Shown: positions 4,686 to 62,214 of the stretch, one piece after another
How the letters are laid out: every line of letters starts with the position of its first letter
How positions within the stretch are numbered: the first letter of the stretch is position 1
Source: Candidatus Poribacteria bacterium
GTDB taxonomy: Bacteria > Poribacteria > WGA-4E > JAJDTR01
Reading direction: 5' to 3'
Length of the DNA: 64,000 nt
Assembly (NCBI GenBank): GCA_965222225.1
Contig: CBDCTK010000002.1
Location: 1,952,001 to 2,016,000, forward strand
Notes under the pieces: model-generated
Databases searched by the model: none
Seen by the model: the letters and a program-made list of their open reading frames with translations, nothing else
Told to the model about the DNA's origin: nothing
Position numbers and translations under genes: made by a program

Positions 4686-4715
4686 CTATCGCACTTGTTA
4701 TTCACTCGCTTGATC
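4686..4715 (-). repeat. 30-nt covarying hairpin element (first of about 42 full copies)
   Basis: ctatcgcacttgttattcactcgcttgatc matches the + strand consensus CTATCGC NN TC NN TA NN C NN TC NN TTGATC. Confidence 0.9.
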
Positions 4716-4788
4716 GCAATAAGAGGGAAATCGGCGATTCGCCGATCGCCGATCGCAGCCTACAGAATGGGGGAACGTGAAGATTATA

Positions 4789-6114
4789 CTAACCTAGGCG
4801 GACGCAGAGAAACGGAATCAACATCTCGTCCGGCGTCAAACCGCCGTGCTTGCCGCCGGTATAATACGGCTTCTCTTTGACAGACGAGTAGAAGGCGTAG
4901 TTGTCACGCATGATGGCGACGAGGTTGCCCATTCGATCGGGCACCTCCGGATGCACGTCCCCGTATCCCCACAGCCCGGAACTCAGCGCCTTCGACGAGG
5001 GAATGGTGACAAGCTGATCAGAGAGCTGATCCTGCAGGTAGGAGCGCAGCGCCTCGAGCTTGCCCTGCTTGGCGTATAGGTACGCCGCCCGAAAATCCCC
5101 CGTTGGCGGCAATAGGAGATTGTCCTTGATTTTCGCGTGTCGATCGACCCGCACCAGTTTGTTGTCGGGCACCGTCACTTGGCCGTGGTCGGCAGTCAAA
5201 ATGAGAAGTGTGGTTCCCGAGATCTGGGAGTCGACGCAATTGATGAATTCGCGCTCGAGGGAATACGAAAGATTCCGCACCTCCGCCGCAAACGCCTCGC
5301 TGTTCGCGCCGTAGGCATGAGAGATTGAGTCGATCGCATCCCAATAGACCAGAATACACGTCCGTTCATCGGGCTTCTCTTTTACCAATCTTCGTAGCGT
5401 CACGAACATGTCCGAAGAGTTCACAAATCCGTGCACCTTCTTTGAACCGTTGTAAAACATCTTGGACAGAGGGCTTTCCTTATAGATGCTCTTGATGAGC
5501 ACATACGAATCAATACCCGCGTTTGTCAGGCGTTGGTTTAGTGTCTCGGCTCGGAGAAACTGTTTAGGCTCAAGTCCCATCCGCAGCAGACGCTCGTGCT
5601 CGCCGTCATAAATCGGCGTAAACCCGATCATATCGGCGACGGTCGCGTACTCCCTGAGGAAAAGGCGATAGCCGAGCATGCCGTGTTCTTGGGGAGTTAA
5701 ACCGGTGCTAAGGCTTGTCAGCGCCGCCGCCGTTGTGGATGGGAAAATTGAGGTGAGGGGGGCGAATCGACCGCGGCTGATGAGTTCGTTGAGAATCAGG
5801 TTGGGTTCGGATCTTAACACCGCCCGAAGTTGATTGTATCCCAAGGCGTCGACGATGAACAAAATCACCTTCCGCACCCCTTCCGTTTGCCCTTCGGTCA
5901 AGTCGTCGGGCAAGGGGGCATGATGCGGGATGCGGATGTTGAAAAGCTTCAGCAGCGTGGCGGGAATGTTGACTAACGAAAGGTCGGAATAGGCGGGGTA
6001 GATGAATTCGCCGGGGCGTAGCCCTTGATTTATCTGTTTGATACTTCTGCTGCGGATCCGAGCTTCAATCCGATCGGCTAATGTTTGAGGCACTGCGGAA
6101 TCCCGATTTGCCAT
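4789..6114 (-). CDS. Alkaline phosphatase superfamily / type I phosphodiesterase-nucleotide pyrophosphatase
   Basis: VDALG, FPSTTAAALTSLSTG..P.EHG, D.ISH.YG, TADHG and G.HGG motifs. Confidence 0.85.
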   Translation of the reverse strand: MANRDSAVPQTLADRIEARIRSRSIKQINQGLRPGEFIYPAYSDLSLVNIPATLLKLFNIRIPHHAPLPDDLTEGQTEGVRKVILFIVDALGYNQLRAVLRSEPNLILNELISRGRFAPLTSIFPSTTAAALTSLSTGLTPQEHGMLGYRLFLREYATVADMIGFTPIYDGEHERLLRMGLEPKQFLRAETLNQRLTNAGIDSYVLIKSIYKESPLSKMFYNGSKKVHGFVNSSDMFVTLRRLVKEKPDERTCILVYWDAIDSISHAYGANSEAFAAEVRNLSYSLEREFINCVDSQISGTTLLILTADHGQVTVPDNKLVRVDRHAKIKDNLLLPPTGDFRAAYLYAKQGKLEALRSYLQDQLSDQLVTIPSSKALSSGLWGYGDVHPEVPDRMGNLVAIMRDNYAFYSSVKEKPYYTGGKHGGLTPDEMLIPFLCVRLG

Positions 6115-6195
6115 ATAACGGGTATTCTCCTATCCAGACACATTCTTATCGGCTACAACTCCGATCCCTGCTAGTCTGTGCAGGGCTGTTGAGGA

Positions 6196-6693
6196 TCAAG
6201 AACAGGTGCCGATGATCAGAACGGCGGCTGGTAATGACGTGGCTTGCGCTTTTTGAAATGCACCGCTGATGGAATGGATATCGTCATCGGTTTCGATGAT
6301 GTTGTAGGGGAATCCCCACGCTTTGAGCGTAGGTTCCAGAAATGTCGCCGCGGAATCGGCGTGGAGTCTGCTCCCAGGCTGAAGTGTCTGATACCCGCGA
6401 TAACCGATAAGCGTTACCAACGGGATTTCCATATTGACGGCGGTGCCTCGGATGGCATCTCCGGATTCCAAGAAACCCGTGTTCTGGATGAGCACCACCG
6501 GCTGCTTGCCGCCGACATACAACCCGGACGCAATGGCGAACGCCTCGCCCTCGCGGGTGACGCTGATAACATCGATTTCCGGCTCGCCGCGAAGTTTTTC
6601 GTAGAGCTTCGCCGACCCGTTATCCGGAAGTCCAATCACATGGGTAACGTCCCATTTCTTTAATTCGTCAATAATCTTCTGCGCTGATGGCAA
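6196..6693 (-). CDS. TPP-enzyme N-terminal subunit (sulfopyruvate/phosphonopyruvate decarboxylase alpha-like)
   Basis: GLPD, VTREGEAFAIASG, IQNTG and GYRG motifs; no beta subunit adjacent. Confidence 0.8.
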   Translation of the reverse strand: MPSAQKIIDELKKWDVTHVIGLPDNGSAKLYEKLRGEPEIDVISVTREGEAFAIASGLYVGGKQPVVLIQNTGFLESGDAIRGTAVNMEIPLVTLIGYRGYQTLQPGSRLHADSAATFLEPTLKAWGFPYNIIETDDDIHSISGAFQKAQATSLPAAVLIIGTCS

Positions 6694-6736
6694 ATCGTAT
6701 CCCTCCTCATCTCGTCAGGAATGGCAATGCGTGTTT

Positions 6737-6802
6737 GTAGGGTGCGCATTGCGATTAAGCGAGTGGATAACGAGTGCGATAGCGATCCTATACCAGCCTT
6801 TG
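6737..6802 (+). repeat. GTAG REP interrupted by a hairpin element (6753-6782)
   Basis: gtagggtgcgcattgc[gattaagcgagtggataacgagtgcgatagcgatcctat]accagcctttg. Confidence 0.85.
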
Positions 6803-6842
6803 AATGTGCCACTCATCACTAGCCACTCGCCACTGTCGTTCC

Positions 6843-8786
6843 CTACTTCCTGCCCTCAACCAATGAATCGACGACCCCCGGCTCCGCGAGCGTCGAGATG
6901 TCGCCGAGGTCCGAGATATCGCCTTCGGCAATCTTCCGCAGCACGCGCCGCATAATCTTGCCGGAGCGCGTCTTGGGCAGCGCCGGGGTGAATTGAATCT
7001 TGTCGGGCGAGGCGTGCGGACCGATATGCCGACGCACCGCCTGTCTGATACCGGTCTCAACTTCATCCGAGCCGGACTCCCCGGTCATCAACGTGACATA
7101 GGCGTATATCCCTTGCCCCTTGATATCGTGCGGATAGCCGACGACCGCTGCCTCAGCCACCGCGCTGTGTTGTCCGATGGCGCCTTCGACCTCCGCGGTG
7201 CCCAATCGGTGCCCGGAGACGTTTAGCACGTCGTCCACGCGCCCGGTAATCCAGTAATAGCCGTCTTCGTCGCGCCGTACGCCGTCGCCCGTCATGTAGT
7301 AACCGGGGAAACGCTCGAAGTAGGTCTGGCGGAATCGCTCGTGATCGCCGTACACCGTCCGCATAATCCCGGGCCATGGGGACTTGATGCAAAGATAGCC
7401 GCTGGCAGGATTTCCCTCGATCTCAACCCCGCTCTCGTCCAAGATAACCGGCTCGACCCCAAAGAGCGGGAACGTCGCCGATCCCGGTTTTAGCGGAGTC
7501 GCCGCAGGCAATGGCGAAATCAACATGCCGCCGGTTTCCGTTTGCCACCAGGTGTCAATGATAGGGCAGCGCCCCTCGCCGACGACATTGTAGTACCAGA
7601 GCCATTCGGGTTCCTTGATGGGTTCGCCGACGGTGCCCAGCAACCGAAGGGTTGACCTGTCATACTTCCTCACCCATTCATCCCCCTCCTTCATCAAGGC
7701 GCGGAGCGCGGTGGGCGCGGTGTAGAAGATTTCGACGTTATGTTTCTCGACCACCTGCCAGAAACGCCCGAAGTCGGGATGGTTGGGTACGCCCTCAAAC
7801 ATGATGCTGACGGCTCGATTCGCCAGAGGCCCATAGATAATGTAGGAGTGCCCGGTGACCCAGCCGATGTCAGCCGTACACCAGAAGATGTCGCCTTCGT
7901 GGTAGTCGAAGACGTTGTGGTGAGTGTAGGACGCATAAACGAGGTAGCCGCCTGTGGTGTGGAGCACGCCCTTGGGCTTGCCCGTCGAACCGGAGGTGTA
8001 GAGAATGAACAACGGGTCTTCGGCGTCCATCTCCTCCGGCGGACATTCGTCATCGGCGGTCGCCATGGCTTCGTCCCACCAGATGTCGCGCGGTGATTCC
8101 CAATCCACCTCATCGCCGGTGTGGCGTACAACGATGATATGTTCGATGGAAGGGCACTCCGCCGCCGCGGCGTCCGCATTGAGTTTCATCGGGATGCCGC
8201 TGCGGGGTCCGCGAAAGGCGGTGTCCTGCGTAATCAACATCTTGCACTGCGAATCGTTGATGCGGTCTCGCAATGACTCCGCCGAGAACGCTCCGAAAAC
8301 GATGGAGTGCACCGCGCCGATGCGGGCGCACGCCAACATTGCAATCGCCAACTCGGGAACCATCTGCAGGTAGATGCAGACGCGGTCGCCCTTCTTGATG
8401 CCGTGCGATTTCAGTACGTTGGCGAAGCGTTTCACCTCACGCAACAGTTCGCTGTAGGTGAAGGTTTTGTCCGCCGACGGATCGTTGCCCTCCCAGATAA
8501 TCGCGGTGTCGCCGCCGTGCCCAGCCTCAACGTGGCGGTCGAGGCAGTTGTAGGAGGCGTTCAGTGTGCCGCCCTCGAACCACTTTATATGCGCGTTAAC
8601 AAAGTCGTACTCTCGGACGTTATCCCATTTCTTGAACCACGAAATTCGTTCGGCGATATTCGCCCAGAACGCCTCCGGGTTTTTTATGGATTCTTCGTAG
8701 ATTTCTTTATACTGTTCGATGCTGCTCACGTGGGCAGTGTTGATGGGGTAATGCGTATCCCCCGGCGGGAATATTTTCGTAGCCAT
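6843..8786 (-). CDS. acs: Acetate--CoA ligase
   Basis: [21 protein letters not shown] and [12 protein letters not shown] motifs; ATG at 8786 with a GGAGGG RBS. Confidence 0.96.
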
Positions 8787-8807
8787 AAGTCCCTCCAAAC
8801 GTCGGTA

Positions 8808-10882: not shown

Positions 10883-10885
10883 GAT

Positions 10886-13868: not shown

Positions 13869-14004
13869 ATTTGAGCTATAATCACGGGAGGGCACAGGGG
13901 CCGTCCCCAACAATCAGTCACGGCCTCAAGAGGAATCTCTATGATGAGCCGAGTAGACAACGAGCAGAAGATTCTATCGCAGCCACTATCCATTCCTTTA
14001 ATCG

Positions 14005-15048
14005 TAGGAGTTACGCAGTTGAGTGAAAATAGGTTATAATTTGAGTATGAATCCCCCTAAATATACTGACACTGACTATATTGATTTCTTGGTAGCCGCT
14101 CAGAAAAGTTACAGTTGTCTTGAATCGGAAAAAGTTCAACCCCAAGCTGATAATCCTCCGGCTCACGATTCGATAACACGGCTCTTGCATCGAGAGGAAC
14201 CCGATACTGGCAAACTGTGGCAAGAATCGAGAAATCAGGTGAAATTAGAATCCGGAATTTTAGTTATAGATGACTCGACTCTGGATAAACCTTATTCACA
14301 AAAGATTGAACTCGTGACAAAACACTGGTCAGGGAAACACCACCGAGTTGTGAATGGGATTAACTTGGTCACTTTGCTCTGGACGGATGGCGATAGACAT
14401 ATTCCGTGTGATTATCGAATCTATGATAAAGCCAAAGACGGCTTGACGAAGAATGAGCATTTCCGCGCCATGCTTGAAGAAGCGAAAACACGCGGTTTTG
14501 CTCCTGAATGTGTGTGTTTTGATAGTTGGTATGCCAGTCTAAAGAATCTAAAAGCGGTGCGAGGTCATGGTTGGAAGTGGCTTACTCGTCTAGCTGCCAA
14601 CCGACTTGTCAGTAAAGATTATTCCGGTAACCGTCCGGTGAGTACGCTTCCGAGTGAATCAACAGGTACAATTGTCCATCTCAAAGGCTATGGATTGATT
14701 CGAGTATTTAAGGTTGACACTCCAGAAGGTGACATTGAATATTGGGCAACGAATGATTTACAGATGGACGAATTGACGCGTCTCAAATATGCCGAATGGT
14801 CTTGGACAATAGAAGAATATCATCGCGGGATTAAGCAATTTGTTGGCATTGAACGCGCACAAGTGCGCTCTGCTCGCACTCAAAGAAATCATATCGGTTT
14901 AGCGCTGAGAGCCTTTCTGAGAATTGAGCACTATTGCTATCATACCGGTATCAGTTGGTTTGATGCAAAACTCTCTATTGTCAGAGATGCGGTACGGGCT
15001 TATTTGGCACAACCTCTTTATACGCTTCAGCCAACTGCGTAACTCCTA
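14005..15048 (+). mobile_element. IS701-like insertion sequence, copy 2
   Basis: Same TIRs and 1044-bp length as copy 1; AATCG direct repeats (14000-14004, 15049-15053); inserted at the end of hairpin element 13974-14003. Confidence 0.9.
14023..15042 (+). CDS. DDE transposase, IS701-like
   Basis: Protein identical to 3591..4610. Confidence 0.88.
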   Translation: MKIGYNLSMNPPKYTDTDYIDFLVAAQKSYSCLESEKVQPQADNPPAHDSITRLLHREEPDTGKLWQESRNQVKLESGILVIDDSTLDKPYSQKIELVTKHWSGKHHRVVNGINLVTLLWTDGDRHIPCDYRIYDKAKDGLTKNEHFRAMLEEAKTRGFAPECVCFDSWYASLKNLKAVRGHGWKWLTRLAANRLVSKDYSGNRPVSTLPSESTGTIVHLKGYGLIRVFKVDTPEGDIEYWATNDLQMDELTRLKYAEWSWTIEEYHRGIKQFVGIERAQVRSARTQRNHIGLALRAFLRIEHYCYHTGISWFDAKLSIVRDAVRAYLAQPLYTLQPTA

Positions 15049-15192
15049 AATCGATAGAAAATCCTACTCCCAATTCGGTCGCTTGAGAGGATCTCTATCG
15101 CACTCCCTATGCAGTCGCTTGATCCCCTACGTTTGTATTTCGAGAGGGCTTGTGATACAATGTCACATCACGGGAGACGAGGATACGTAAAG

Positions 15193-16995: not shown

Positions 16996-17403
16996 GATAA
17001 AGGCCTAACGCTGTCAAGGCAGCGATGTTACTGCAAGAATTTAAAGATGACAGGGAATCACGCCCAAAAAAATCTAGCGGAACAGAACGCGGTCACGCGT
17101 ACTCAATAGGGCAATAGAACAGATTAACGCGTTTATGCCGTGATTCTCTTGAACCAGTCAGAGTTTTCAGGGACGGTAAGTTACAGTCTCGGGCAACGGG
17201 CCATTACGAAAAAATGCTTAGAAAGCAATTCTGAAGGATTTTTTCTTTGAAAAACTCGGTATATAGCGACGATAAACGTTTTAATCAGTGACAGGCCGTA
17301 TCTGTATGGTCTCTATCGCACGGGAATTTCTATCTCAGTCGCTGTTCGCTTCTTCCATCGTTATCCACTCGTTTGAATGATTTCTATCGCCCTCGCTATT
17401 CAC

Positions 17404-17580
17404 TCAGTTAATCTTAATCATTTCGTTCAAGAAGGAGGCGCGGAGTTCCGCGCGCAGTGAACGTCGGGACACCACATCCACCTTGCATCCCAATACCCCC
17501 TCCAAGTATTGACCCAGTCCAACGAGATCGAAGAGATTAGCGTTATCATCGAAATCCACCAAGAGATCCAGATCGCTGTC
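17404..17580 (-). pseudogene. 3' fragment of a minimal nucleotidyltransferase gene
   Basis: Encodes DSDLDLLVDFDDNANLFDLVGLGQYLEGVLGCKVDVVSRRSL; close copy of 18111-18275; bounded by hairpin-element sequence. Confidence 0.8.
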
Positions 17581-17807
17581 CGATCGCTTGAGGGCACTTC
17601 TATTGGGGTTAGCTATCGCCTTCGCTGTCCGCTCAGTTGATCTGTCCCTATCGGTTCCATTGATTGGTCATTTGCCTTGTTGCGAACAACAGAAACGTGA
17701 TATAATTCTCGAAATTCATCGTCAAACACTCAAAAACAACACAATTAGTAAATATCTGGATTCGTACACCGGGAAAACTCTCCGCGCTAGAATGGGAGGC
17801 AATCGAA

Positions 17808-17978: not shown

Positions 17979-18110
17979 ATGTGAACTTCTTCTCAAGTTG
18001 AAATCTTCGATCATTGAGCGATGCGATTCATCGCGAGCGTGGATGACGAACAGGATTGTCTATCGCAGTCGCTGTTCGCTCCCTTGATCGTTGTTTACTC
18101 CCTAAATCCC

Positions 18111-18504: not shown

Positions 18505-18765
18505 ATCGGAGGAGGTACGCTTGGCAGGGCAATTGCACTCGACCATCAACCGATTGTGTTGGCGTTTTCCGACTGAGTGCCGTTCAGCGCGGAGCAGAAT
18601 TTATTGGACGGCAAATGCCAACATCTATAGCCATCAACCAAGTGGACAACGAACAGGATATTCTATCGCGACCTGGAGATCGAGGGATTTCTATCGCGCT
18701 CCTTATCCAGTCGCTTGATGATTAAAGGATTTCACGGATTAGGTTTCGCTAAGTGATATATCTCG

Positions 18766-19043: not shown

Positions 19044-19298
19044 TTAGTGATTTACTTTCTAAATATATGCGGTAAGTGTTGTGCGCAGGTGCAGTTAGAA
19101 ACCGCACCTACCGGCGATTCTTGCAAGTAAAGGAAGTCGCGACCTGGAGAAGATCTCTATCGCACTCACTGTGGGATCTTCTATCGCTTTCGTTATCCAC
19201 TCAGTTGATCGTTCGCTTGATCTCCTACAAGTAATGATGGTGTGTGTTTATATTCTTGTAAGCAGAAACCCGGGTTACGTATGAATGAGGAGGAAAAG

Positions 19299-21397: not shown

Positions 21398-21880
21398 CGC
21401 GACCTGGAGGGAGATCTCTATGGGAGCTCTACGGGATTTCTATCGCGCTCCTTATCCAGTCGCTTGATCTATTCGCTCCCTTGATCGTTGAGCCCAACCT
21501 ACGAATATGACTGGGCAAAGCCGCATGTTTGCACCGTGCAGGGCAACGGGAATGAGATCCCTGACCTATTCCGTGCACCGGGGGCACGAAACCCGTCATC
21601 GGGAGCGGTATGATTGGGTTTTCTACTGGCATGGATGTTGCGCTGTGGCGAAGTATACACGACCATCCATTGGGCTCACGCAGGTTGCCCCGATTCCTAG
21701 GAAAAGATAGAGGGTGAGGTAATACGCTATCGCCCGGGATTCGCTATGGGAACGCTATCGCCTTCGTTAATCACTCAGTTGATCACTCGCTAATCGCTCG
21801 CTTGATTCTAATCAGTCGGTTGATCGATAGAGATCCCAAGGCGATAGTTTGTCCTACTCGTTATCCAGTCGCTTGATTTC
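21398..21880. repeat. Clusters of full and partial hairpin elements with REP remnants
   Basis: Full copies at 21440 and 21755, with fragments in both orientations. Confidence 0.85.
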
Positions 21881-22324
21881 CTCTGGAGCGCGGAGGAGAA
21901 GCGTAAGCAGATGGAGGGATTCCTATCGAGGTCCTTCCCTTGATTCCACCTTACGACGTCGGAGTGCACATGAAGAGTAACCGTGCCTGCAATGCGCAAA
22001 CTGACAGTTTGCGCTACAAAAACGGCGGTGGATGTCTAGAATCCTGTGAGTCGTAGGCGGTAAGAGAAGGGATTGGTGATTCGACGAATGCCGGTTGTTC
22101 GCTGCACAACGGATATTTTTCGTGGAAGCAATGAGGTCACGACCTGGAGGGGGAGCTCTATAGGAACTCTATCGCACTCACTATTCACTCGTTTGATCGT
22201 TCCTTTGATCCCACCCTACATAATGCTTGCGATGCGCAAACTAACAGTTTGCGGTACAGAAAAAGGTGGTGGATGTCTAGAATCTTGTAATTAGCAACTT
22301 GGGTTATCTATTACCAAGGAGGAA

Positions 22325-24205: not shown

Positions 24206-24850
24206 GGAGTGCGCTTGGTGGACGGTAAGAGGAGGGATAGGGGATTCGTCGGTTGCCGGTTGATCGCTGCATAACGGACATGTTTCGTGCAAATAACGAG
24301 GTCGCGACCTGGGGGGATCTCTATCGCACTCATTATCCATTCGTTTGATCGCTCCTACAAGTGATGGCGGACGGGGGAGTTCTATCGATCAACGAAGGCG
24401 ATAGGAATTCTTACTCACTGTTTATTCTTTTGAGCCCACCCTACGATTGAACAGAAATATTTGGTCAATCTTGAACTTTGGAGTGTATCTGAAATGAATC
24501 CGTGCTTGCGATGCGCAAACTAACAGATCAAGCGAGCGAATAGCGAGTAGGACAAACTATCGCCCTCCCTATCCAGTCGGTTGATCGTTTCTTTCCCGGT
24601 CAGTGGCAGGGGTTCCGTTGGGTTTCACTATGCTTCACAAGGATTGAGCGCCATAGAGCGTCAGAACTTGGGTGGAACGCCGCGCGTTCCATTGGTTGGT
24701 GCCGTTCAACCCAACCAACGAACTTCGGAGTGCACATGAAGAGTAACCGTGCCTGCAATGCGCAAACTAACAGTTTGCGGTACAAAAATCGGTGGCGGAT
24801 GTCTAGAATCTTGTAATTAGCAACTTGGGTTATCTATTACTGAGGAGGAA

Positions 24851-25700: not shown

Positions 25701-26500
25701 GGTGTACGCAGTTGGTGGGCGGTTAGAGACGCATTTAGTGGTTCGATGGTTGCCAGTTTCACGGGACGTGAAAGATATGCTCTGTGGATTTAAAGCTAAG
25801 TGGTTTAATCTCTGAAGATAGAGGGCCCGAGGTTTGCGTATCCTAGTCTACTGACAGAGAGACGCGCACAGACGGCAACCGCACATGGCACTCCGCTGGA
25901 TCGCAAGACGGTCATAGAGCCACGTTCTATCAACATGACGCTCCGCTGGAGCGTGACTGTCGTATTCCTATGGCTAGCTGTTGGTCGGGACTTTCTCTCC
26001 AAGGGAGAACGAGTGAGAAATTAATGATGGACAATCAATTCCAACATACATGAAATACTTTGCGCAAAAACCCTTTAGTGGTTTACTCGATAAGCGTTTA
26101 ATGCGAATATGGAGGTCGCGATTCGTAGAGGGATATACTATCGCCCGCCTTAATCAGTCGGTTGATCGCTCCGACAGCGAGAGGTCGGATGATTGCACCG
26201 GACAGAGAGTTGGGCGGGGCAAGGGGATCTCTATCGATCAACTGACCGAATAGGGAAGGCGATAGATTATCTTTTAACCGTCTGGTCTTTCTGGTTGACC
26301 ATTGAAAAAGTCTCGAGCGGTTTCTGGTGCGATATAGCCTGTCACTCGTCGCTCTTTCAAAGGCTGGTGCGCAGTGCACACCCTACAGACTTTAGTGTTG
26401 TACAGAGTCGAGCTATCGCACTCACTTCCATTCGCTTGATCCCGTACAGGGGATGGGTGCATGTGAATGTGATGACAGGTTTGGGAGAGGAAACTTCCAT

Positions 26501-33350: not shown

Positions 33351-34035
33351 GAATTCCTATCGATCAACTGACCGAATAGGGAAGGCGATAGGAATTCTTG
33401 CTCGCTGTAAAATCTCTATCGCACTCGCTAATCGCTCGCTTGACTGGCCGCGACCGGGAGAGGGAGCTCTATCGCAGTCATTATCCATTCCTTTGATCCT
33501 ACAAGAAATGGTGGGCGGCGCCCACCCTACAGGAGCTCTATCGCGCGGGATTTGCCGCGGGAATCGGTGCGGACAGAGTCGGGGCAAGATGCCCCTCCTA
33601 CGGTGTATTTGTTTGTATCCAGCGAGAAGAACGGCGGTGCAGGATGCGCACCTTACAACGGCTAAAGGGCGGTGCGGGGGAACCTTAGGGGATTTCTATC
33701 GCACGGGATCTACTATCGCCCTCACTATTCGTTCGGTTGATCGTTATCCATTCGTTTGATTCCCTCCTACAAATTGGTTAATCGCCCGTTGTCCAGTCGA
33801 AAAAGGACATTCTTTGTCTGGTAACTCGATTGTCATCTGTGCGATAATATGACACTGATAAGGTATTTGGACTACCCCGGATTGGTCAGATTTTCTACCT
33901 CAAGGGATTTGCTATAGGAACCCTATCCGGACTTGCTATCGCACGGGATTTTCTATCGCGGTCACTAATCGGTCGGCTGAGGGGTCGCGACCGGGAGGTC
34001 GCTCCTACAAGAAATCATTCATTCGCTTGATCCTT
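33351..34035. repeat. Dense cluster of hairpin elements and GTAG REPs
   Basis: Full copies at 33362 (reverse), 33416, 33469, 33713 and 33953; intact REPs at 33577-33601 and 33983-34008. Confidence 0.88.
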
Positions 34036-35087: not shown

Positions 35088-35365
35088 GGATCTCTATCGC
35101 AATGGAATCTCTATCGCGGTCGCTATTTGCTCCCTTGATCCTTCCTTAATCAGTCGGTTGATCCTCATTCAGTTGCTTGATGGTCGCGACCGGGAGGTCG
35201 CTCCTACGGGATAGCTTTAGGCGGGGCAAGATGGGATCTCTATCGCACTCGCAGAAAGGCTGGTAAAATCTCAATCAGAATCTTCTATCGCCATCACAAT
35301 GGGATCTCTATCAAGAATTCCTATCGGGATTCTCTATCGCACTCGCTATCCGCTCGCTTGATCAT
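35088..35365. repeat. Hairpin-element cluster
   Basis: Full copies at 35111 and 35334, with many GATCTCTATC fragments. Confidence 0.88.
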
Positions 35366-36319: not shown

Positions 36320-36547
36320 CGGTCGGTCAGTTGATGATCGCGACCGGGAGGGAGGATTTACTATCGCCCTCACTATCCGTTCGCTTGATCGCTCCTACAG
36401 GGCGGGTTTAGCTATGGGATTGCTATCGCACTCGCTATCCGCTCGGTTGATCGATAGAGATCTTGATAGCAAAGAAGCAGCTGACTGATAGGGAACAAGA
36501 GTTACTATCGCGTTCGTTATCCACTCACTTGATCGCGCGCTTGATCC
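36320..36547. repeat. Hairpin-element cluster
   Basis: Full copies at 36361, 36423 and 36505. Confidence 0.88.
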
Positions 36548-38443: not shown

Positions 38444-38609
38444 CTCAATACCTCCTACATTTTATGGATAATGGGAGATTGTTAAATCCCCGACTGCTCA
38501 ATACAAAGACTCAAAGGCTGGTGCACAGGGGAACTCTATCGCGCTCATTATTCATTCGCTTGATCGTTATTCACTCAGTTGATCGGTCGTGTTGTGCATG
38601 GATGTTGGG

Positions 38610-39200: not shown

Positions 39201-39459
39201 GAGCCTGCTTGAAAAATAGATGTCAAAGCCATTCTGAAGCTGTTGAGTGCTATAATCTGTCGGTCCGCTGGGGCTTAAGTGCGTGGGGTTTCGGCGTTTC
39301 TACACACCTTCAAGATCTCTATCGCACTCGCTAATCGCTCGGTTGATCCCACTCTGGGGCTTTTAGATGCTGGTGCCCTGTGCGCACCCTACAAGAGCCC
39401 TGATGAAAACCTTGGTTTTGAGGCGAAATGTGCGACAAAATGAATTTTCAAGCAGGCTC
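39201..39459. mobile_element. MITE with nested REP and hairpin element
   Basis: TIRs gagcctgcttgaaaa / ttttcaagcaggctc with TTA flanks. Confidence 0.65.
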
Positions 39460-39479: not shown

Positions 39480-40005
39480 CTCAAAAGCTGGTGCAGGATC
39501 TCTTTCGCAGTCATTGTTCATTCCTTTGAACGGTGCCCACCCTCCATCTTGCTCGTTTGAGGATGGTGGGCGGGTGATTTCAGCGCTACGCGAAGGATGC
39601 TAGTCGCGAAGCAGATTGTTACACGGTGGTCAGCGGGGCAAGGAGATCTCTATCGTCCTCGCTATCCGCTCGGTTGATCCCCGCCTACAGGGACGGATAG
39701 AGTATATCTGTTTGTATCTTCGGTATCCAATGAAGTTGGGTTTCGCTGTGCTCAACCCAACCTACGTCGTTGATTGGGTGTCTACCACATTGTGCTCCTC
39801 GCGAGCGCTTGAGAGAAACATGTACCCGTTCTATCGACATGGCGCACCTCCCGAGCCAGGAGTGGAGACGGTACGGGGTCGGAGGGATTTCTATTGGGGG
39901 TTCTATCCCAGTCACTATTCGCTCCATTGATGGTCGCGATTCGGAGATCGCTCCTACGGGGCGGGATTTACTATCGCCCTCCCTAATCAGTCGGTTGATC
40001 CCCAT
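39480..40005. repeat. REP/hairpin-element cluster
   Basis: Full copies at 39502, 39650, 39903 and 39971. Confidence 0.85.
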
Positions 40006-41355: not shown

Positions 41356-41639
41356 CGGAACGTGTTAAGTGGAGAGTGACGAGTGGAGAGTGAAACCTAA
41401 CACCTCAATCCAGGCCTAGAGTTGATTGTAAAGTTGGGTTTCACTAGATTTGAAAGGGTTCTAAACGGAATCGTGTTCCTGGAAGGGAGTGTGAGGACGG
41501 GTGTTTATGACTGCAGCCGTTCAACCCAACCTACGTGTTGACTACAACTTTCCGATAAGAGCCTGTTTGAATAATCGGTGGCAAAGCAATTTCGGTCACT
41601 TTGGGCGCGGCTTTTTCATGCTTTTGTGGTAGCCTGCTA

Positions 41640-42066
41640 CATACCTGTAGGATCTCTATCGCACTCACTATCCGTTCGTTTGATCCCCGCAGGGGCTTTA
41701 GATTTGTTGTGTTGTCTTCGTTCTATAAACCTTTCGCACCTCCGGTGCTTACAAAGGCTGGTGGGCGGGGGACCTCTTTCGCACAGGATCTACTATCGCC
41801 CTCCCTAATCAGTCGGTTGATCCCAACCTACGGACCTGATGCCTATGGGGGGCGGGGCAAGAAGATCTCTATCGCACTCACTATCCAGTCGATTGATCCC
41901 CTCCTACGAGTTAGATGAGGTAAGTTCTATGGGATCTCTATCGATCAACCGACTGTATAGAATCAACTGAGCGGATGGCGAAGGCAATAGCAAATCCTGC
42001 TCATTATCCATTCCCTTGTTCGCACGTTGTGGCCGTGAAAGGTTGGTGCGCGATGCGCACCCTACA
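41640..42066. repeat. REP/hairpin-element cluster
   Basis: Full copies at 41656, 41793 and 41869; intact REP at 42045-42065. Confidence 0.85.
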
Positions 42067-49522: not shown

Positions 49523-49584
49523 AAAGGCTGGTGCGCAGGGGATCTCTATCGCAGTCATTGTTCATTCCCTTGATCGCACCCTAC
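49523..49584 (-). repeat. REP with a hairpin element (49546-49575) in its loop
   Basis: aaaggctggtgcgca[ggggatctctatcgc...ttgatc]gcaccctac. Confidence 0.9.
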
Positions 49585-51691: not shown

Positions 51692-51907
51692 ATGGACAAG
51701 ACAATCATCTCGGTGGCAGTCGTGGGCGGGGGATCGACGAAAGAAATGAATCCGGCGCTGCCGTATACGCCGAAGGAGATAGCCGACGCCGCAATCGAAT
51801 GCTGCGCGACGGGTGCGGCGATTACGCACATCCACGTCCGCAACCCCGAAACCGGAATCGTGTGTTCACGGTTTGAACTCTTCCAAGAGGATCAAGCGAA
51901 TGGATAA
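51692..51907 (+). pseudogene. Truncated beta-keto acid cleavage enzyme (DUF849/BKACE)
   Basis: [23 protein letters not shown]; ends abruptly in a hairpin element at 51890. Confidence 0.85.
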
Positions 51908-52093
51908 TGAGCGCGATAGCAAGTCCCGCGCGATAGAAAGTTTTGATAGATATCCTCTCGCCCACCATCACCTCAGACTCGGTAGGAGCGATTTCCCGAT
52001 CGCGACCGATTGACCGACTGAATAAGGATCAAATGACCGGTTAGGGAGTGCGATAGGGATCTTTTCGCGATAGAGAATATTGATAGAGATCCC
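51890..52093 (+). repeat. Hairpin-element/REP cluster in the opposite orientation
   Basis: Full copies at 51890-51919 and 52027-52056; REP at 51982-52007. Confidence 0.88.
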
Positions 52094-53475: not shown

Positions 53476-53950
53476 TGACCGTTAAGTTGTAGTCGTTGTA
53501 GGGTGCGAACAAAGGGACGATTGGTGAAGGGGACTTGCTATCGCCTTCGCTATTCGCTCAGTTGATCGATAGAACTCCCATCCAGACTGATCCGTCACGT
53601 AGGAGGGGCATCTTGCCCCGACCCCTTGAGGAAGAGAACCCTAATTATGAAGTGCGATGGCTTTCCTACAGCCTCCGCGACAGAGATCCTCTCCCGTTCT
53701 AGCGCATAACGCCAGCGTTTATTAATATACAATCTAATATGTGTAAATATAAATGACTATAGGGGAGGTTCAGTCAACCTAAGGCATTCTGCCGGGAGGA
53801 CATGTCAGGGTTGGATTGAGGACAACATCTAACTGAGGAGGGGGTTCTGCTCAAGAGGGACGTTGAAGTGGAGGTTGCGACACCCGATGGCGCACGGGAG
53901 ATGCTGGGCATCGCTTAAAGCTACTCCTCACTAGTCGCTGACCACTGCCT

Positions 53951-56713: not shown

Positions 56714-57259
56714 GGCGAATCTGGGTTGAGGTAAGGCTACTTCCGATGAGGGAACAGGATTCTATTTGTCTTATTGCCCCGCTTGTTATACTCTACAGTT
56801 TCCTTCAACGCAGCGGTAAAGGTGCGTCTCTCTATTGGTCAAAAGCATACCACAAATGCAACCGTGTTTCAAATGGAAATACGAGATCTTGTCCGCAACC
56901 ACCAAATCCCCAATGTCCTCTTTCTCCTTTGTAGGTTGGGTTTCCAAGCGCGACAATCGCTGATTTCTCCTCTTTTTGCCACTTATCCGACCGGTGACGG
57001 ACAAGTATGAACAACAATTTTTGTTTGACAGCGCCTTTGATTCTTGGCACACTATGTGCGCTACTTCAATGGCTGCATACGGCTCGCTACCCGGTGATGT
57101 CCGTCGCTCTCCAATACTGAACCATTACGGACTCCAAGTCTGCAATCTGGATACACTTGATAACTTAACACACATATAGTACAATTTGCCGAAGTGTTGA
57201 AAAGGACAAGAACACAACACTCAGTAACCAATCACTTGTGGAATGAAAGGATCAACCGA

Positions 57260-57675
57260 ATGAATAGCGAGGGCGATAGTTTTCTGACGTTGACGTGGCC
57301 AGATTTTTATCCAGCAGACTGTCCGCCTGCGGAAGCCGAATCTGCTTCCGGTACAGTTTACCGCCTTGTAAAACACGACCCGGCACGGGCAGAAGATTTC
57401 AAATCAGTCTTTGAAGAAAACCTAAGAGGAGTCAAAGAAAAGCAAACTGTGAATCTCTATGGACTCTCCGTCCATAGAGATTCACAAGACAGCGAGCGAC
57501 TACGCGAGCGACTAAAGAACAGGGCCAGAAAATTCAAAAACAGACAGATTGCGGAAGGTAGTCTAAATTCAACGCTTGGAATGATTCGACATACACCATC
57601 AATAGAGGAATCACACATACTTGGTGGGTACCTATTGGAGCGGAGCCTAGGCTTGTTTTTAACGTAATCCGGTAA
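57260..57675 (+). CDS. Hypothetical protein (probable 3' frameshift); likely start codon lies inside a hairpin element
   Basis: WP..YP..CPP..A...VYRLV and GLSV; ATG 57260 within the element at 57250-57279. Confidence 0.55.
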
Positions 57676-58877: not shown

Positions 58878-59332
58878 CAAGAAGACTTATTCTCCGCAGC
58901 GAGTTTGAAATTTCGACCAACTACTAAAATCACATGAGCCCAGTCGGACAGCTTGCTAAGATTGGTCGCTCGTAGTCAGATAATGCTAGGCTCGCGGAGA
59001 CTGCAAATCGGACGCTCCCCGATTTCCATCAACAATCGTCATTCGTCAAATTCCCGCCTTCTCTTACTCCGCCCACCACACGTGGTAAAGTCAAAAAACG
59101 CCAGTACAAATCCCCACCCGACGCAACCCCAAAGCACTTGCAACACAACTGGATGTGTGATATAAACCTCAATGCGAATCCTCGGCGATTTAATTGAAGG
59201 CTTCCAGATGCCGTGCGCCCGCATGGCTGGTGCTTTGACGTTGCTCAAAGTTGCCGCTTCTGCTAAAATGTTCTCTAACAACAGTCAGAGTTTGCAAGAC
59301 GGAACAATGCCTTAACAATCAAAGGAGCTCAC

Positions 59333-60367
59333 ATGATACGGCAAACCACAGTAATCCTACGGGTACTCATTTTGTTGCTCATTGTCACGGCGAGTGGATG
59401 TGAGAAGGGCAGCGAACTCCCGGCAAGCGCCATCGTGGCTGGGAAATATATCATTCTGGACACGCGGACGGATCAGGGCGACTCGGCGACGGCAAAGAAG
59501 AACGCCGAAAACACCCTGAAGAAATATCCCGATATCAACGCAATGGTCGGGCTTTGGGCGTACAATACCCCTCAATGCCTCGAGGCAGTGAAGGATGCCC
59601 GCATGGAGGGGAGGGTGAAGTTGATCTCTTTCGACGAAGACAATTTGACGCTGCAGGGAATCAAAGATGGTCATGTGCACGGAACTGTCGTGCAACAGCC
59701 TTATGAGTTCGGCTACCAGTCGATGAAATACCTCAAAGCGCTGGCGGAGGGCGACACATCCGTGATCCCGCCAAACAAGATGTTGGATATCCCGACGAGG
59801 GTGATTAAGAGGGACAACGTTGATGAATTCTGGGCTAATCTTAAGGAACTCAGTCAGTTGGGTGAGACCGCGAAAGACGCGGAAAAACCGACGGGCGGGC
59901 ATCATTTCGCCTTCGTGGTGAACGTCCCCAACGAGTTTTGGAATTACGCCAGAGCCGGTTGTTACAAAGCCGAACAGGATTTCGGTCTGCTCTGCGATTT
60001 CAAGATTCCCCACGACGGTTCATCGGCGGAGCAGAATCGAATCCTCGAAACGCTCGTTCAGAAGGACGAAATTAAGGGAATCGCCGTGAGTCCGCTCGAC
60101 CCCAAGAATCAGACGGCGATTCTCAACCAGGTGGCTGAGAAGGTCACACTCCTGTGCCACGACAGCGACGCGCCGGACAGTAACCGTCTGTTTTATCTGG
60201 GCACAAACAACTATCTCGGTGGTCGGCAGGTTGGCAAGTTGGTCAAAGAGGCTTTACCAGACGGCGGCAAACTGATGATTTTTGTTGGGAAATTGGATGT
60301 GCTGAATGCGCAGCAGCGGCGGCAGGGAGTGATTGACGAGCTCATGGATAAGCCGATGCCGGAATAA
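59333..60367 (+). CDS. Sugar ABC substrate-binding lipoprotein, circularly permuted
   Basis: Lipobox ASGC; RbsB-like halves in swapped order. Confidence 0.85.
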   Translation: MIRQTTVILRVLILLLIVTASGCEKGSELPASAIVAGKYIILDTRTDQGDSATAKKNAENTLKKYPDINAMVGLWAYNTPQCLEAVKDARMEGRVKLISFDEDNLTLQGIKDGHVHGTVVQQPYEFGYQSMKYLKALAEGDTSVIPPNKMLDIPTRVIKRDNVDEFWANLKELSQLGETAKDAEKPTGGHHFAFVVNVPNEFWNYARAGCYKAEQDFGLLCDFKIPHDGSSAEQNRILETLVQKDEIKGIAVSPLDPKNQTAILNQVAEKVTLLCHDSDAPDSNRLFYLGTNNYLGGRQVGKLVKEALPDGGKLMIFVGKLDVLNAQQRRQGVIDELMDKPMPE

Positions 60368-60391
60368 ATCTGGATTGGCGCAATTTATTCG

Positions 60392-60428
60392 GAGAAACCG
60401 AGTTTTCAAGAAAAAACTCGGTTTCTTC
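60392..60428. repeat. Palindromic repeat / possible terminator
   Basis: agaaaccgagttttcaagaaaaaactcggtttct; relatives at 50342 and 62140. Confidence 0.6.
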
Positions 60429-60497
60429 TACTGGAAACTCGTAACATGCCCGCCTATCCCATACTCCTTCGGCGAACCAACAAATCCCGGAATTTCT

Positions 60498-62033
60498 ATG
60501 CAGAACGGTGATGTAAAACCCTTCCTAGAGGCGACCGGAATCCACAAACGCTTCCCGGGGGTGCACGCGCTCAACAACGTGAACGCGACCTTTTTCCTCG
60601 GCGAAGTAGTCGCTGTCATTGGGGAGAACGGCGCAGGCAAAAGCACCTTGATGAAGGTTATCGCCGGCGTCCATCCACCCGACGCGGGAACCATTACGCT
60701 TGAAGGAGAACCGGTAACCATCCCCACCGTCTCCAAGGCGACCGAACTGGGAATCGCATTCATTCATCAGGAACTCAACCTCTCGGACAATTTGAGCGTT
60801 GGGGCGAACATCTTCTTGGGGCGGGAGCCGCGTAAGTTTGGGCGCCTCGGCTTAATCAATCAGAAGTCGATTCGCCGCCATACCCGCGACATCCTCGATC
60901 AGTTGGAGATGGACTGCGATCCGGAAACAATCGTCCGCGAGCTTTCCATCGGGCATCAGCAGATGGTAGAAATTGCCAAGGCGTTATCCCAGAACGCCCG
61001 GATGATTATCATGGATGAGCCGACGAGCAGCCTGACGCAACACGAAACGGATTGCCTCTTTAATCTTATCCGCAGCCTGAAATCCCAAGGCGTTTGTGTC
61101 GTCTACATCTCCCATCGCCTGATGGAGGTCGGTCAGATTGCCGACCGCGTGATTGTCCTCCGAGACGGCGAAAATAGCGGCGAGTTGGCTCGTGACGAGA
61201 TTGACCACGAGCGCATGGTATCGCTGATGGTGGGTAGATCTCTGACGCAGTTTTATCAACACAAAGAACATCAGATTGGATCGCCGGTGCTTGAGGTTTC
61301 CGATTTGGTGGTGCCCGGGCATTCGGATCTGCGTATCAATTTCACGCTCCATGCGGGCGAGGTGGTTGGAATGGCTGGCCTCGTGGGTGCGGGACGGACA
61401 GAGCTGGCGCAGGCAATCTTCGGCGTTGACGGCGCTGTTTCCGGGACGCTCAAGGTTGATGGCGAAATCGTGGAGATTCACAACCCCCGTGACGCAATCA
61501 ACGCGGGCATTGCGCTCGTTCCGGAGGATCGTCGCGATTACGGGCTGATAACGGAATTTGCCGTTCGCGACAACATCTCATTGTCCGCGCTTGACCGTTA
61601 TCAGACGGCGAAGTTTGTGCGCCAGAAAAAGGTCGCCGACCTCGCCCGCGAGGCGGTGGATGAGTTCAACGTGAAAACAACCTCTATCGAAAACGAGGTT
61701 GGGCTGCTCTCCGGCGGCAATCAACAGAAGGTTGTGCTTGCCAAGTGGATATCCCTGAAACCGAAAGTTCTGCTTTTGGACGAACCTACAAGGGGCATTG
61801 ATGTCGGCTCCAAGAGCGAGATTTACCAGTTAATCGAAGACTTGGCAAGTCAAGGCGTGGCTATCCTGGCAATTTCCAGTGATCTTGAGGAGATTCTGCG
61901 GATCTCGGACCGCGTGTTGGTCATGCACGACGGAGCGCTGACGGGCGAACTCGCGCGTGACATGCTCAGTGAAGAGGCGGTCATGGGGCTGGCAACTGGA
62001 TCAAGCGACCGAATAGATCAACTGAGCGGATAG
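60498..62033 (+). CDS. Sugar ABC ATP-binding protein (RbsA-like)
   Basis: GENGAGKSTL, DEPTSSL, LSGGNQQKV and DEPTRGID. Confidence 0.93.
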   Translation: MQNGDVKPFLEATGIHKRFPGVHALNNVNATFFLGEVVAVIGENGAGKSTLMKVIAGVHPPDAGTITLEGEPVTIPTVSKATELGIAFIHQELNLSDNLSVGANIFLGREPRKFGRLGLINQKSIRRHTRDILDQLEMDCDPETIVRELSIGHQQMVEIAKALSQNARMIIMDEPTSSLTQHETDCLFNLIRSLKSQGVCVVYISHRLMEVGQIADRVIVLRDGENSGELARDEIDHERMVSLMVGRSLTQFYQHKEHQIGSPVLEVSDLVVPGHSDLRINFTLHAGEVVGMAGLVGAGRTELAQAIFGVDGAVSGTLKVDGEIVEIHNPRDAINAGIALVPEDRRDYGLITEFAVRDNISLSALDRYQTAKFVRQKKVADLAREAVDEFNVKTTSIENEVGLLSGGNQQKVVLAKWISLKPKVLLLDEPTRGIDVGSKSEIYQLIEDLASQGVAILAISSDLEEILRISDRVLVMHDGALTGELARDMLSEEAVMGLATGSSDRIDQLSG

Positions 62034-62214
62034 CGCGCAGGATTTTCTATCGGAGTTCTATCGCACTCATTATTCATTCGCTTGATCCCTCCTTATCCGG
62101 TCGGTTGATCTATAGAAATCCCGTGCGATAGAGTTCCCTTTTCAAGAAAGAAAACTCGGTTTCAGGGCAAATTGGGCTACTACAAATAGATCTTCAATCA
62201 GGCTCTTAAGGTAC

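Follow-up and report, generated by a model that had tools for sequence, protein, structure and literature searches.

E30, a short structured repeat of Candidatus Poribacteria that appears to be a new miniature mobile element of DNA, inserting into other hairpin repeats and into itself

E30 copies in the window and their fold

The 64-kb stretch of DNA analysed here (the window), from a Candidatus Poribacteria sponge symbiont, carries many copies of a short structured repeat, which we named E30 and whose 30-base core follows the pattern CTATCGCNNTCNNTANNCNNTCNNTTGATC. With up to two mismatches allowed, the pattern matched 39 times in the window and never in 100 dinucleotide shuffles; with up to three, it matched 42 times. 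An earlier note on this DNA had listed about 42 copies, 41 of which were recovered at the looser threshold (35/36 forward, 6/6 reverse). The remaining one, at 26413, is 29 bases long with a 1-base deletion, and one extra reverse copy, absent from that list, lies at 41961. The unit is longer than the 30 nt then proposed: in this genus a 7–8 base leader, GGGATYT, lies 5' of CTATCGC, giving a unit of some 37–38 bases. In the list below, the strand is the one that carries CTATCGC, and the foldable strand is its complement. Rows opening with 'E30 core' are pattern matches with at most two mismatches unless another basis is stated.

4686..4715, +, E30 core, 1 mismatch
6753..6782, -, E30 core inside GTAGGGTGCGCA-type REP hairpin (also from the sequence as read)
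13974..14003, +, E30 core, 2 mismatches
15095..15124, +, E30 core
17384..17413, +, E30 core
17613..17642, +, E30 core
18060..18089, +, E30 core; identical copy beside the aligned syntenic block in relative G019 (also from alignment)
18691..18720, +, E30 core
19181..19210, +, E30 core
21440..21469, +, E30 core
21755..21784, +, E30 core
22169..22198, +, E30 core
24321..24350, +, E30 core
24557..24586, +, E30 core
26138..26167, +, E30 core
26236..26265, -, E30 core
26413..26441, +, 29-base E30 core, 1-base deletion
33362..33391, -, E30 core
33416..33445, +, E30 core, 2 mismatches
33469..33498, +, E30 core, then directly CTACAAG
33510..33533, +, classical REP (hairpin GGTGGGCG/CGCCCACC, then CTACAGG); context, not E30
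33696..33704, +, split outer E30, head, positions 1–9 (CTATCGCAC)
33705..33742, +, inner E30 inserted in the outer: 8-base leader GGGATCTA plus core 33713–33742
33743..33761, +, split outer E30, tail, positions 12–30; stem bases complementary to those in the head
33953..33982, +, E30 core, degenerate 3' end, 3 mismatches (match at ≤3 mismatches)
35111..35140, +, E30 core, then stacked tails
35334..35363, +, E30 core
36361..36390, +, E30 core
36423..36452, +, E30 core, then inverted head (GATAGAGATC)
36505..36534, +, E30 core
38536..38565, +, E30 core
39319..39348, +, E30 core within a ~130-base composite repeat built on a GCCCC..GGGGC REP
39502..39531, +, E30 core, degenerate, 3 mismatches (match at ≤3 mismatches)
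39650..39679, +, E30 core
39903..39932, +, E30 core, 2 mismatches
39971..40000, +, E30 core
41637..41700, +, E30 (core 41656–41685, ≤2 mismatches) inside GCCCC..GGGGC-type REP: ..CATACCTGT / AGGATCT + core / CCCGCAGGGGCTT
41793..41822, +, E30 core
41869..41898, +, E30 core
41961..41990, -, E30 core, 3 mismatches (match at ≤3 mismatches), additional to the earlier list
49546..49575, +, E30 core
51890..51919, -, E30 core
52027..52056, -, E30 core
53538..53567, +, E30 core
57250..57279, -, E30 core
62058..62087, +, E30 core

Across the 39 window copies, 97.1% of 273 cells pair, compared with 77.8% in shuffles, and none of 500 shuffles reached 97.1%; with the partner columns slid by 1 to 3, pairing was 23–49%. 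Eight of 156 variable cells are unpaired; a previous count by hand had given about 11 of 168. At up to three mismatches, 1085 copies, 662 of them distinct, are scattered over the entire chromosome of this 5.7-Mb genome. Among these 1085, the pairs 8-24, 9-23, 12-20 and 13-19 rank as the top four by mutual information. Watson–Crick pairs occur there in 755, 973, 998 and 893 copies, respectively; A.C, which is G.T on the GATCAA strand, in 260, 35, 35 and 148; and G.T on the CTATCGC strand in 15, 28, 21 and 22. The proposed covariation of the first with the fifth and the second with the fourth variable dinucleotide holds for four base pairs in window and genome alike, and the counts support the proposed strand-specific hairpin of two 2-bp stems, an invariant GA/GA and a pentaloop, which reads G-R-A-T-A. 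Wobbles had been said to work on one strand only; genome-wide, there are 478 G.T-type wobbles on the GATCAA strand and 86 on the CTATCGC strand, a strong preference for GATCAA...GCGATAG that amounts to 'almost only' but is not exclusive.

At the place in G019 aligned to 33469..33498 there is an E30 copy with six variable bases different, and the next 137 bases differ at three places. Duplicated islands keep identical flanking E30 copies, and another species shares one copy without any difference. Since stem bases are stable in these cases, stem diversity reflects family history and turnover and not local hypermutation.

With RNA parameters, the proposed hairpin was the minimum-energy fold in 245 of 300 GATCAA-strand copies as against 91 of 300 complements, with a mean minimum free energy of -4.8 kcal/mol on the GATCAA strand. 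With DNA nearest-neighbour parameters the hairpin was marginal (mean -1.1 kcal/mol) and was the minimum-energy fold in merely 34 of 300 copies. This predicted stability, marginal for DNA and clearly better for RNA, counts against reading E30 as an ssDNA element. It favours an alternative in which E30 is mainly RNA, a short hairpin with tandem G.A and a GNRNA-like pentaloop that serves protein binding or processing in transcripts, its genomic spread being secondary; the wobble asymmetry, too, fits G.U as well as G.T. Comparison with Rfam 15, which the earlier note had called for, gave no match to E30 and speaks against RNA. No family reached its gathering score in the window, 18 E30-bearing Poribacteria loci totalling 143 kb matched a group II intron only, and no relevant family appeared at E up to 10 in a 231-base stretch holding three E30 copies. 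With our own E30 model, true copies score 54–60 bits. A motif named Poribacteria-1, mentioned in the earlier note, would like E30 be a small hairpin repeated in genomes of this phylum. So either E30 is no family of the Rfam 15 library or that motif is absent from the library; a literature search by the term 'Poribacteria-1' found no occurrence of the name.

Surroundings, strand bias and taxonomic range

E30 midpoints lie outside ORFs in 803 copies and inside them in 282 (crude ORF calls, whole genome), and 226 of the latter fall in ORFs shorter than 150 aa, which are probably spurious. E30 is therefore a short imperfect palindrome of high copy number and mostly extragenic position, like the repeats of REP/REPIN-RAYT systems. 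Copies are irregularly spaced (median 1949 bases, without a dominant period), and this excludes a CRISPR repeat; a regular-repeat scan gave two other tandem repeats and no E30 array. Neighbours at most 300 bases apart are direct in 269 cases and inverted in 79. The view that E30 belongs to no known REP, CRISPR or attC class stands, as it has no GTAG tag, no regular array and no integron boxes.

Co-directional, divergent and convergent spacers hold 496, 153 and 154 copies, roughly in proportion to spacer length, which argues against a role in transcripts. In co-directional spacers the foldable strand is sense slightly more often (277 vs 219), as the RNA alternative would have it. Orientation, however, follows GC skew and not gene direction (r = 0.34 and r = -0.07, respectively): 723 of 1082 copies have CTATCGC on the strand that is locally G-rich. 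DNA is therefore favoured over RNA, and since a functional RNA site would not survive the nested insertions that break many copies (see below), we regard a mainly RNA role as unlikely.

By the usual GC-skew logic, the foldable strand would mostly be the leading-strand template. IS200/IS605 elements use the lagging-strand template. The corresponding strand of this genome's GTAG-type REPs shows the same bias (94/132 and 146/230), and the E30 bias persists in 380 of the 592 copies that have no REP within 60 bases. Since true REPs share it, the bias argues against a simple IS608-like model but not against mobility.

Among the matches listed from the genome collection, all E30-bearing stretches are from Candidatus Poribacteria, and within the phylum E30 is abundant in two genera only. 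It is present in 9/9 genomes of its own genus (567–1262 copies at up to one mismatch) and in 4/4 genomes of a genus of another family (about 200 copies each); the core is common to both genera and the leader differs. The sister genus in the same family does without E30, and none of 100 genomes of a third family (f3) carries it.

Twenty fixed positions are 85–99% conserved genome-wide, while the eight stem positions each have two or three frequent bases that pair. A host-binding role has been proposed for BIME/REP sequences in enterobacteria, and E30 might likewise be a DNA site maintained by the host for a nucleoid, topoisomerase or replication-linked protein, its copies kept by selection and mobility being merely their origin. 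Conservation of the fixed positions over some 1000 copies and two genera, with stems saturated with changes, looks like purifying selection on many copies, and the orientation bias is linked to replication. Yet the sister genus and all 100 f3 genomes manage without the site, copy number ranges from about 200 to 1262, copies interrupt one another and occur where two RAYT genes are cut short, and no candidate binding protein tracks E30. We therefore consider a host-maintained site improbable.

Insertion into REP hairpins and nesting

What the earlier note had missed is that E30 is an insertion, complete with leader, in a REP/RAYT-rich setting, and that it nests in itself. Three species carry an empty site, CACCTGT-CGC-CCC[T/G]CTGGGGC, directly 3' of the same IS200-like gene. 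One orthologous site (L108) is filled and reads CACCTGT-(GGGGATTT + core)-CCCGCTGGGGC. The insert recurs at another filled site (L110), whose right junction, CCTCTCTGGGGC, is not a clean replacement. Within the GGTGSGCAGTGCSCACCCTAC REP, 24 E30 copies were found, with the left junction GGTGSGC plus two bases (AG in 22/24) and a right junction that is always GCACC or CCACC; in the 22 with the AG junction, TGC is replaced. Overall, E30 lies within hairpins of at least four classical GTAG-type REP families, at fixed junctions. To our knowledge, the replacement of 2–3 target bases fits no known transposition chemistry. No fresh insertion was seen between near-identical strains, for which the public-run contigs break at repeats.

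A truncated head abuts the leader in 110 of 1006 full copies. Where a tail immediately follows a full copy, it begins at position 8 (119), 12 (42), 13 (21), 14 (31), 19 (45) or 21 (25), that is, mostly at stem-strand edges, the 21 at position 13 lying inside a stem strand. In split outer copies, the stem bases of head and tail were compatible in 89/104 cases, as against 67/104 when the head was matched to the inner copy as a control; with so high a control, the test is supportive but not overwhelming.

These insertions could also be a by-product of REP/RAYT activity, in which short DNA is copied or ligated into RAYT-nicked REP hairpins, so that E30 would be a hyperparasite or scar without an enzyme of its own. 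The fixed junctions inside REP hairpins are in keeping with this, as are copies that flank or truncate RAYT genes, the strand bias common to E30 and REPs, and the 283 of 1085 copies followed by CTAC within 12 bases. In 658/1085 copies the next 40 bases contain no CTAC; where there is one, it is part of an adjacent or invaded REP. On the other hand, 592 of 1082 copies lie more than 60 bases from any REP motif, RAYT families and their REPs are widespread in genera without E30, and the E30-in-E30 sites have no GTAG tag. Such an origin seems to us very unlikely.

Altogether, we favour, at a probability of roughly 0.55, a REP-like, structure-recognised, non-autonomous ssDNA element moved by a putative trans-acting enzyme. 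E30 would work as ssDNA on the GATCAA...GCGATAG strand, folding into three invariant pairs, an AA/GC internal loop, a 2-bp stem, the tandem GA/GA, a second 2-bp stem and the GRATA loop. The enzyme may recognise the sequence of the invariant flanks and of the unpaired bases and the shape of the two short stems, so that stem bases could drift freely yet remain complementary. New copies would enter intergenic DNA, with a preference both for hairpins of other kinds, namely classical REPs of several families, and for the helix edges of existing E30, with 2–3 target bases replaced.

Candidate enzymes and comparison with known systems

The enzyme moving E30 was not found among Y1/RAYT, tyrosine recombinase, IS110 and TnpB proteins. 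In a survey of five PF01797 loci and one further fragment, each Y1/RAYT type was flanked, in relatives, by its own GTAG-type REP and not by E30; E30 copies near RAYT loci are inserted into the REPs of those loci. The earlier note had suggested looking for co-occurring HUH/RAYT or tyrosine recombinase genes, but five RAYT types and one tyrosine recombinase did not follow the E30 distribution, nor did any other protein tested. A multi-copy tyrosine recombinase adjoins some copies and is equally common in genera without E30; E30 copies also lie beside the genes of its island. IS110 and TnpB had no match in this genome (95% complete). A Y2/IS91 search had none here either, and its control matched 0/14 reference genomes, so this result is uninformative. 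No multi-copy ORF family among those listed is consistently bounded by E30. An HUH/Y1 (RAYT-type) transposase, of which these genomes have many, is only the default suspect as mobiliser.

A DDE-derived MITE was rejected: terminal inverted repeats would be expected, but an inverted head follows only 42 of 1085 copies, and junctions show 2–3 bases replaced and no target-site duplication. E30 resembles integron attC in keeping its fold despite a variable sequence and in having a single functional strand. attC sites measure 57–141 bases, with R/L boxes and GTTRRRY. They lie in cassette arrays beside intI, whereas E30 is dispersed over the chromosome, not in cassette arrays, and has no R/L boxes. 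With no integron integrase found in the genome (best TIGR02249 score 41 bits, cut-off 265), the analogy drawn earlier is unsupported.

E30 is close in form to REP/REPIN-RAYT repeats, which are likewise short (20–40 base) imperfect hairpins, number in the hundreds, lie mostly between genes and are restricted to certain lineages; it also shares the replication-strand bias of this genome's own REPs. It differs in that its core lacks a GTAG or CGTC tag at the hairpin 5' end and its stems are merely 2+2 bp with an invariant tandem GA. It also inserts into REPs, it has no doublet habit (close neighbours being mostly direct, unlike in REPINs), and no examined RAYT is flanked primarily by E30 as a cognate, with inverted flanks and a shared distribution, would be. 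Like the palindrome-associated elements of IS200/IS605 (ssDNA 'peel and paste', Y1 HUH), E30 may be a strand-specific hairpin recognised as ssDNA, and it has short conserved stretches next to the hairpin and does not obviously duplicate its target. In contrast to them, it has a single hairpin in place of distinct left and right ends, replaces 2–3 target bases, shows a bias opposite to the lagging-template rule of IS608, and resides in a genome with no TnpB match. A further parallel is found in the mobile hairpin clusters of organelles (yeast mitochondrial GC clusters and sponge mitochondrial repetitive hairpin-forming elements; PMC2800124). These are organellar, of other sequences and with no known bacterial link; like E30, they are tiny hairpin insertions invading intergenic DNA and each other.

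Anatomy, covariation and fold of E30

The dispersed pattern claimed in the earlier note, here called E30, was borne out in the window: there were 39 matches at ≤2 mismatches against none in 100 shuffles, and 97.1% of the cells in these copies are paired, a value equalled in 0 of 500 shuffles and to be compared with 23-49% for slid partners, both shuffle tests being inflated by the relatedness of the copies. Of the 42 copies claimed there, 41 were recovered at ≤3 mismatches; the one at 26413 carries a 1-base deletion, and an unlisted copy lies at 41961. The window's own genome, G000 (5.70 Mb in 2 contigs, 50% G+C), holds 1085 copies at ≤3 mismatches, of which 559 are perfect, 307 carry one mismatch, 140 two and 79 three. 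These comprise 662 distinct sequences, the most frequent full sequence occurring 45 times.

A profile of all copies has 20 fixed positions at 85-99% identity. CTATCGC is preceded by the leader GGGATYT, which occurs in two registers (7 or 8 bases), and a weaker S-C-T preference follows 3' of the 30-base core. Read on the complementary, foldable strand, the unit is 5'-GATCAA NN GA NY GRATA RN GA NN GCGATAG ARATCCC-3'. Its four stem pairs are the top four by mutual information among 435 position pairs. Two or three bases are in frequent use at each stem position, giving about 10 outer and 8 inner stem types and 181 combinations in 866 copies. Cells that are not Watson-Crick are mainly A.C on the CTATCGC strand, which corresponds to G.T or G.U on the other (478 vs 86). 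The mutual information and the wobble counts uphold the covarying, strand-specific hairpin proposed from the window alone; the structural reading is well supported, and the foldable strand is identified as the GATCAA side. Three more pairs (A-T, T-A and C-G) could close the base of the hairpin, but they are no proof of it because they are invariant throughout.

When folded as RNA, the GATCAA strand has a mean energy of -4.8 kcal/mol, and the proposed hairpin is the exact minimum-energy fold in 245 of 300 sampled copies; for the complementary strand the count is 91 of 300. Folded with DNA parameters the hairpin is marginal (-1.1 kcal/mol; 34 of 300 copies); DNA nearest-neighbour rules are not known to give sheared G.A pairs special credit.

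Active hypermutation of the stem bases was rejected in favour of turnover, since duplicated copies and one cross-species copy are identical: copies flanking duplicated islands stay the same, and the window copy at 18060 is identical in the species represented by genome G019. The window copy at 33469 and its aligned G019 counterpart differ at 6 variable positions, against 3 differences in the adjoining 137 bases, and homology stops at the left edge of E30. We read this difference as a replacement or as an independent insertion at a hot spot.

Insertion of E30 into REPs and into its own copies

Comparison of empty and filled sites showed that E30 is an insertion. In three species, an intact REP (a short hairpin repeat, classically GTAG-tagged), CACCTGT-CGC-CCC[T/G]CTGGGGC, lies just 3' of the same IS200-like gene. 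At the corresponding loci of two other species, L108 and L110, an insert made of GGGGATTT and the core follows CACCTGT. The right junction at L108, CCCGCTGGGGC, is a clean replacement of CGC, and that at L110, CCTCTCTGGGGC, departs further from the empty sites. A second REP, GGTGSGCAGTGCSCACCCTAC, contains 24 E30 copies across both of its main sequence variants. On their left these copies adjoin GGTGSGC and two further bases (AG in 22 of 24), on their right always GCACC or CCACC, and TGC is replaced in the 22 copies with the AG junction. E30 was also found inside REPs flanking another RAYT (REP-associated Y1 tyrosine transposase, PF01797) and, in relatives, inside REPs beginning GTAGGAG and GGTAGGTGCGG.

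E30 inserts into itself as well. A truncated head abuts the leader in 110 of 1006 full copies, usually ending at position 9, 10 or 16, and tails directly after a full copy start at positions 8, 12-14, 19 or 21. These starts are mostly edges of stem strands, with the exception of 21 tails at position 13, which falls inside one. The stem bases of the head pair with the matching tail in 89 of 104 cases, vs 67 of 104 for the head and the inner copy; head and tail are therefore two halves of one older copy.

Clear example of nested E30
Window 33696-33761: E30 within an older E30 copy

In each class of junction, which may include amplified composites besides independent events, 2-3 target bases are replaced (CGC, TGC, and TC or YC, on the CTATCGC strand). 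Of the junction models tried, among them a 'TC' target, a 'TCGC' core and a GATC duplication, none fits all classes. A composite repeat of about 130 bases at window 39240-39400 recurs in about 10 other places in G000 as a block copied at 83-90% identity, and combines a pair of GCCCC..GGGGC REPs with an embedded E30 and a GGTGCGCAGTGCGCACC REP. Because this block is copied with E30 inside, E30 can also spread as a passenger. In public data, Logan contigs from four runs break at the repeats and yielded no empty site that could be used.

Genomic distribution and candidate mobilising enzymes

By a crude ORF call, 803 E30 midpoints in G000 are intergenic and 282 lie in ORFs, 226 of these in ORFs of <150 aa, many of which simply run across the repeats. 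Of the spacer copies, 496 are in co-directional, 153 in divergent and 154 in convergent spacers, roughly in proportion to spacer length. Orientation is unrelated to nearby gene direction (r = -0.07) and follows local GC skew (r = 0.34): 723 of 1082 copies have CTATCGC on the locally G-rich strand. In two families of classical REPs, used as calibration, the CCTAC-ending strand is the G-rich one for 94 of 132 and 146 of 230 copies. Since the bias is the same, the foldable strand of E30 has the orientation of the GTAG strand in true REPs. The bias persists where no REP motif lies within 60 bases of E30 (380 of 592 copies). Skew along C2, the 5.6-Mb main contig of G000, is patchy, with many sign changes and no two clean arms, a pattern for which numerous rearrangements, or joins made at repeats during assembly, could account. 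On the strength of the orientation data we favour, as likelier though not proven, that E30 acts as ssDNA rather than RNA.

In a scan of species-representative genomes, the 80 matches listed, of at least 101, were all Candidatus Poribacteria MAGs, and viral contigs gave 0 matches. We surveyed 151 Poribacteria genomes at ≤1 mismatch, kin genomes not being independent. All 9 genomes of the window's genus are rich in E30 (567-1262 copies), as are all 4 of a second genus placed in another family (about 200 each), which keeps the core and the covariation and has an RRAAGA-like leader in place of GGGATYT. A sister genus within the window's family gave 3 hits, and family f3 gave 0 in 100 genomes. The few hits in genomes G127 and G001 are probably binning contamination, because they are confined to a handful of small contigs. 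The closed genome G061, of another genus, carries a lone small cluster of nested E30 pieces with a GGGATC-type leader (C1:1255800-1255950; L160:1460-1580), between two convergently oriented ORFs and with no informative gene nearby; it may be a trace of DNA transfer out of the E30-rich genus. In the relative OZ244829.1, an E30 copy has domains V-VI of a group II intron about 900 bases away (L001:2800-2878; Rfam RF00029, 59.8 bits).

The Y1 inventory of G000 comprised five PF01797 loci and one further RAYT fragment.

RAYT/Y1 loci
L102, C2:3080255-3080728: IS200-like gene, G000
L104, C2:3089075-3089347: G000
L105: G000
L106: fragment, G000
C2:1545570-1545977: RAYT fragment, G000
L108-L120, L134-L148, L197-L226, L258-L261: related loci

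At least five RAYT/Y1 types occur in these Poribacteria, each with a GTAG-type REP family of its own on its flanks, in relatives too (GCCCCAGCGGGGCGACAGGTGTATAG, GTAGGAGCGACCTCCCGGTCGCGA, GTAGGGTGCGCACTGCGCACC, GTAGGGGACGCAGATCTGCGTCCCCTAC and GTAGTAGGCAC among them), an unusually rich set within one genome. L102 and L106 have inverted E30 copies on their flanks, as in classical REP-RAYT systems, and two RAYT genes of G000 have E30 at their truncated N-terminal ends. Both L102 and L106 were rejected as the cognate RAYT: in relatives, other REPs flank their homologues, and it is inside those REPs that E30 lies in G000. The L104 paralogues, with E30 within their REPs, were dropped too, as were the Y1 genes of the second genus and the fragment at C2:1545570-1545977, each with REP flanks of its own. 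Judged from these arrangements, E30 is a later guest in the RAYT-flanking REPs.

E30 also lies beside the genes of a tyrosine recombinase island present in 4-5 copies. The recombinase was dropped as mover because a 76-77% identical protein occurs in genera without E30. Across the 151 genomes, neither it nor any of five RAYT types is confined to the two E30 genera. The island encodes the recombinase (PF00589) and a 330-380 aa protein without a Pfam match; some copies add a 599-aa protein with a P-loop-like motif, and some, not all, have E30 in their spacers.

Island sites on C2 of G000
458772-461202
1313884-1316304
3331014-3336533
3989320-3991387
4161168-4170285

The only RVT_1 hit in G000 is a weak domain (27.5 bits) in a 670-aa ORF at C2:4499560-4501572 (L227:514-2526, - strand), which may be a defence-type reverse transcriptase and shows no sign of a link to E30. 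IS110 and TnpB had no match in G000, nor did a Y2 search whose control matched nowhere either. Among the HUH/RAYT, reverse transcriptase and tyrosine recombinase genes examined, kinds of gene that the earlier note had proposed to look for, no mobilising enzyme for E30 was found. Two ORF families are also repeated in G000, one of 339 aa, probably an IS transposase, with 24 near-identical copies (window 3591-4610, -, and 14023-15042, +, among them), and one of 284 aa with 46 copies; E30 was not seen as a consistent boundary of either.

E30 compared with known repeat families

Rfam 15, which the earlier note had proposed for comparison, yielded no family at gathering score in the window and none for E30 in 143 kb from 18 related E30-bearing loci; at E up to 10, including 231 bases with three copies, nothing relevant appeared. 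True copies score 54-60 bits with a covariance model made from those in the window; had a family for E30 existed in Rfam 15, it would have been detected. The same model found no diverged relatives in 149 kb of genomes without E30. A 2017 survey is said to have named a motif Poribacteria-1. In the papers searched, neither that name nor anything on Poribacteria repeats was found.

A CRISPR repeat was rejected, as spacing is irregular and a scan for regularly spaced repeats returned no E30 array, flagging two other tandem repeats. These two, short regular runs at C2:1685487 and C2:1547512 in G000 (4-5 units, spacing 50-95 bases), are unrelated to E30 in sequence. The analogy to integron attC sites is without support, no integron integrase having been found in G000.

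REPs, small hairpin repeats, are the most abundant mobile DNA in many bacteria, and we know of a mechanism only for those of the GTAG/RAYT type. The landing of E30 in hairpins of other kinds and within its own loops points to REP and E30 hairpins extruding as single strands in the cell, and to one selfish element, E30, preying on another, the REPs. With a probability of roughly one in four, E30 would represent a new class of hairpin-targeting, shape-recognised ssDNA element, a hyperparasite of REP/RAYT systems moved by an enzyme from a family hitherto not linked to transposition. It would then, at 37-38 bases, be among the smallest such elements known, recognised mainly by shape through a tandem G.A platform and pentaloop, and would integrate specifically at helix edges of DNA hairpins in extruded form, its own copies as well as REPs.

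With about 1000 natural variants of a single small fold per genome, in which the unpaired bases are invariant and the stems covary freely, E30 comes close to a ready-made mutational scan of the requirements of a structure-reading enzyme. E30 also widens knowledge of genome architecture in an uncultivated phylum, and repeats of its kind break short-read assemblies. Compared with REPs, E30 lacks the GTAG tag, a cognate RAYT and the doublet arrangement, and therefore falls outside that class, but it resembles them in being small, defined by shape, non-autonomous and biased to the same strand.
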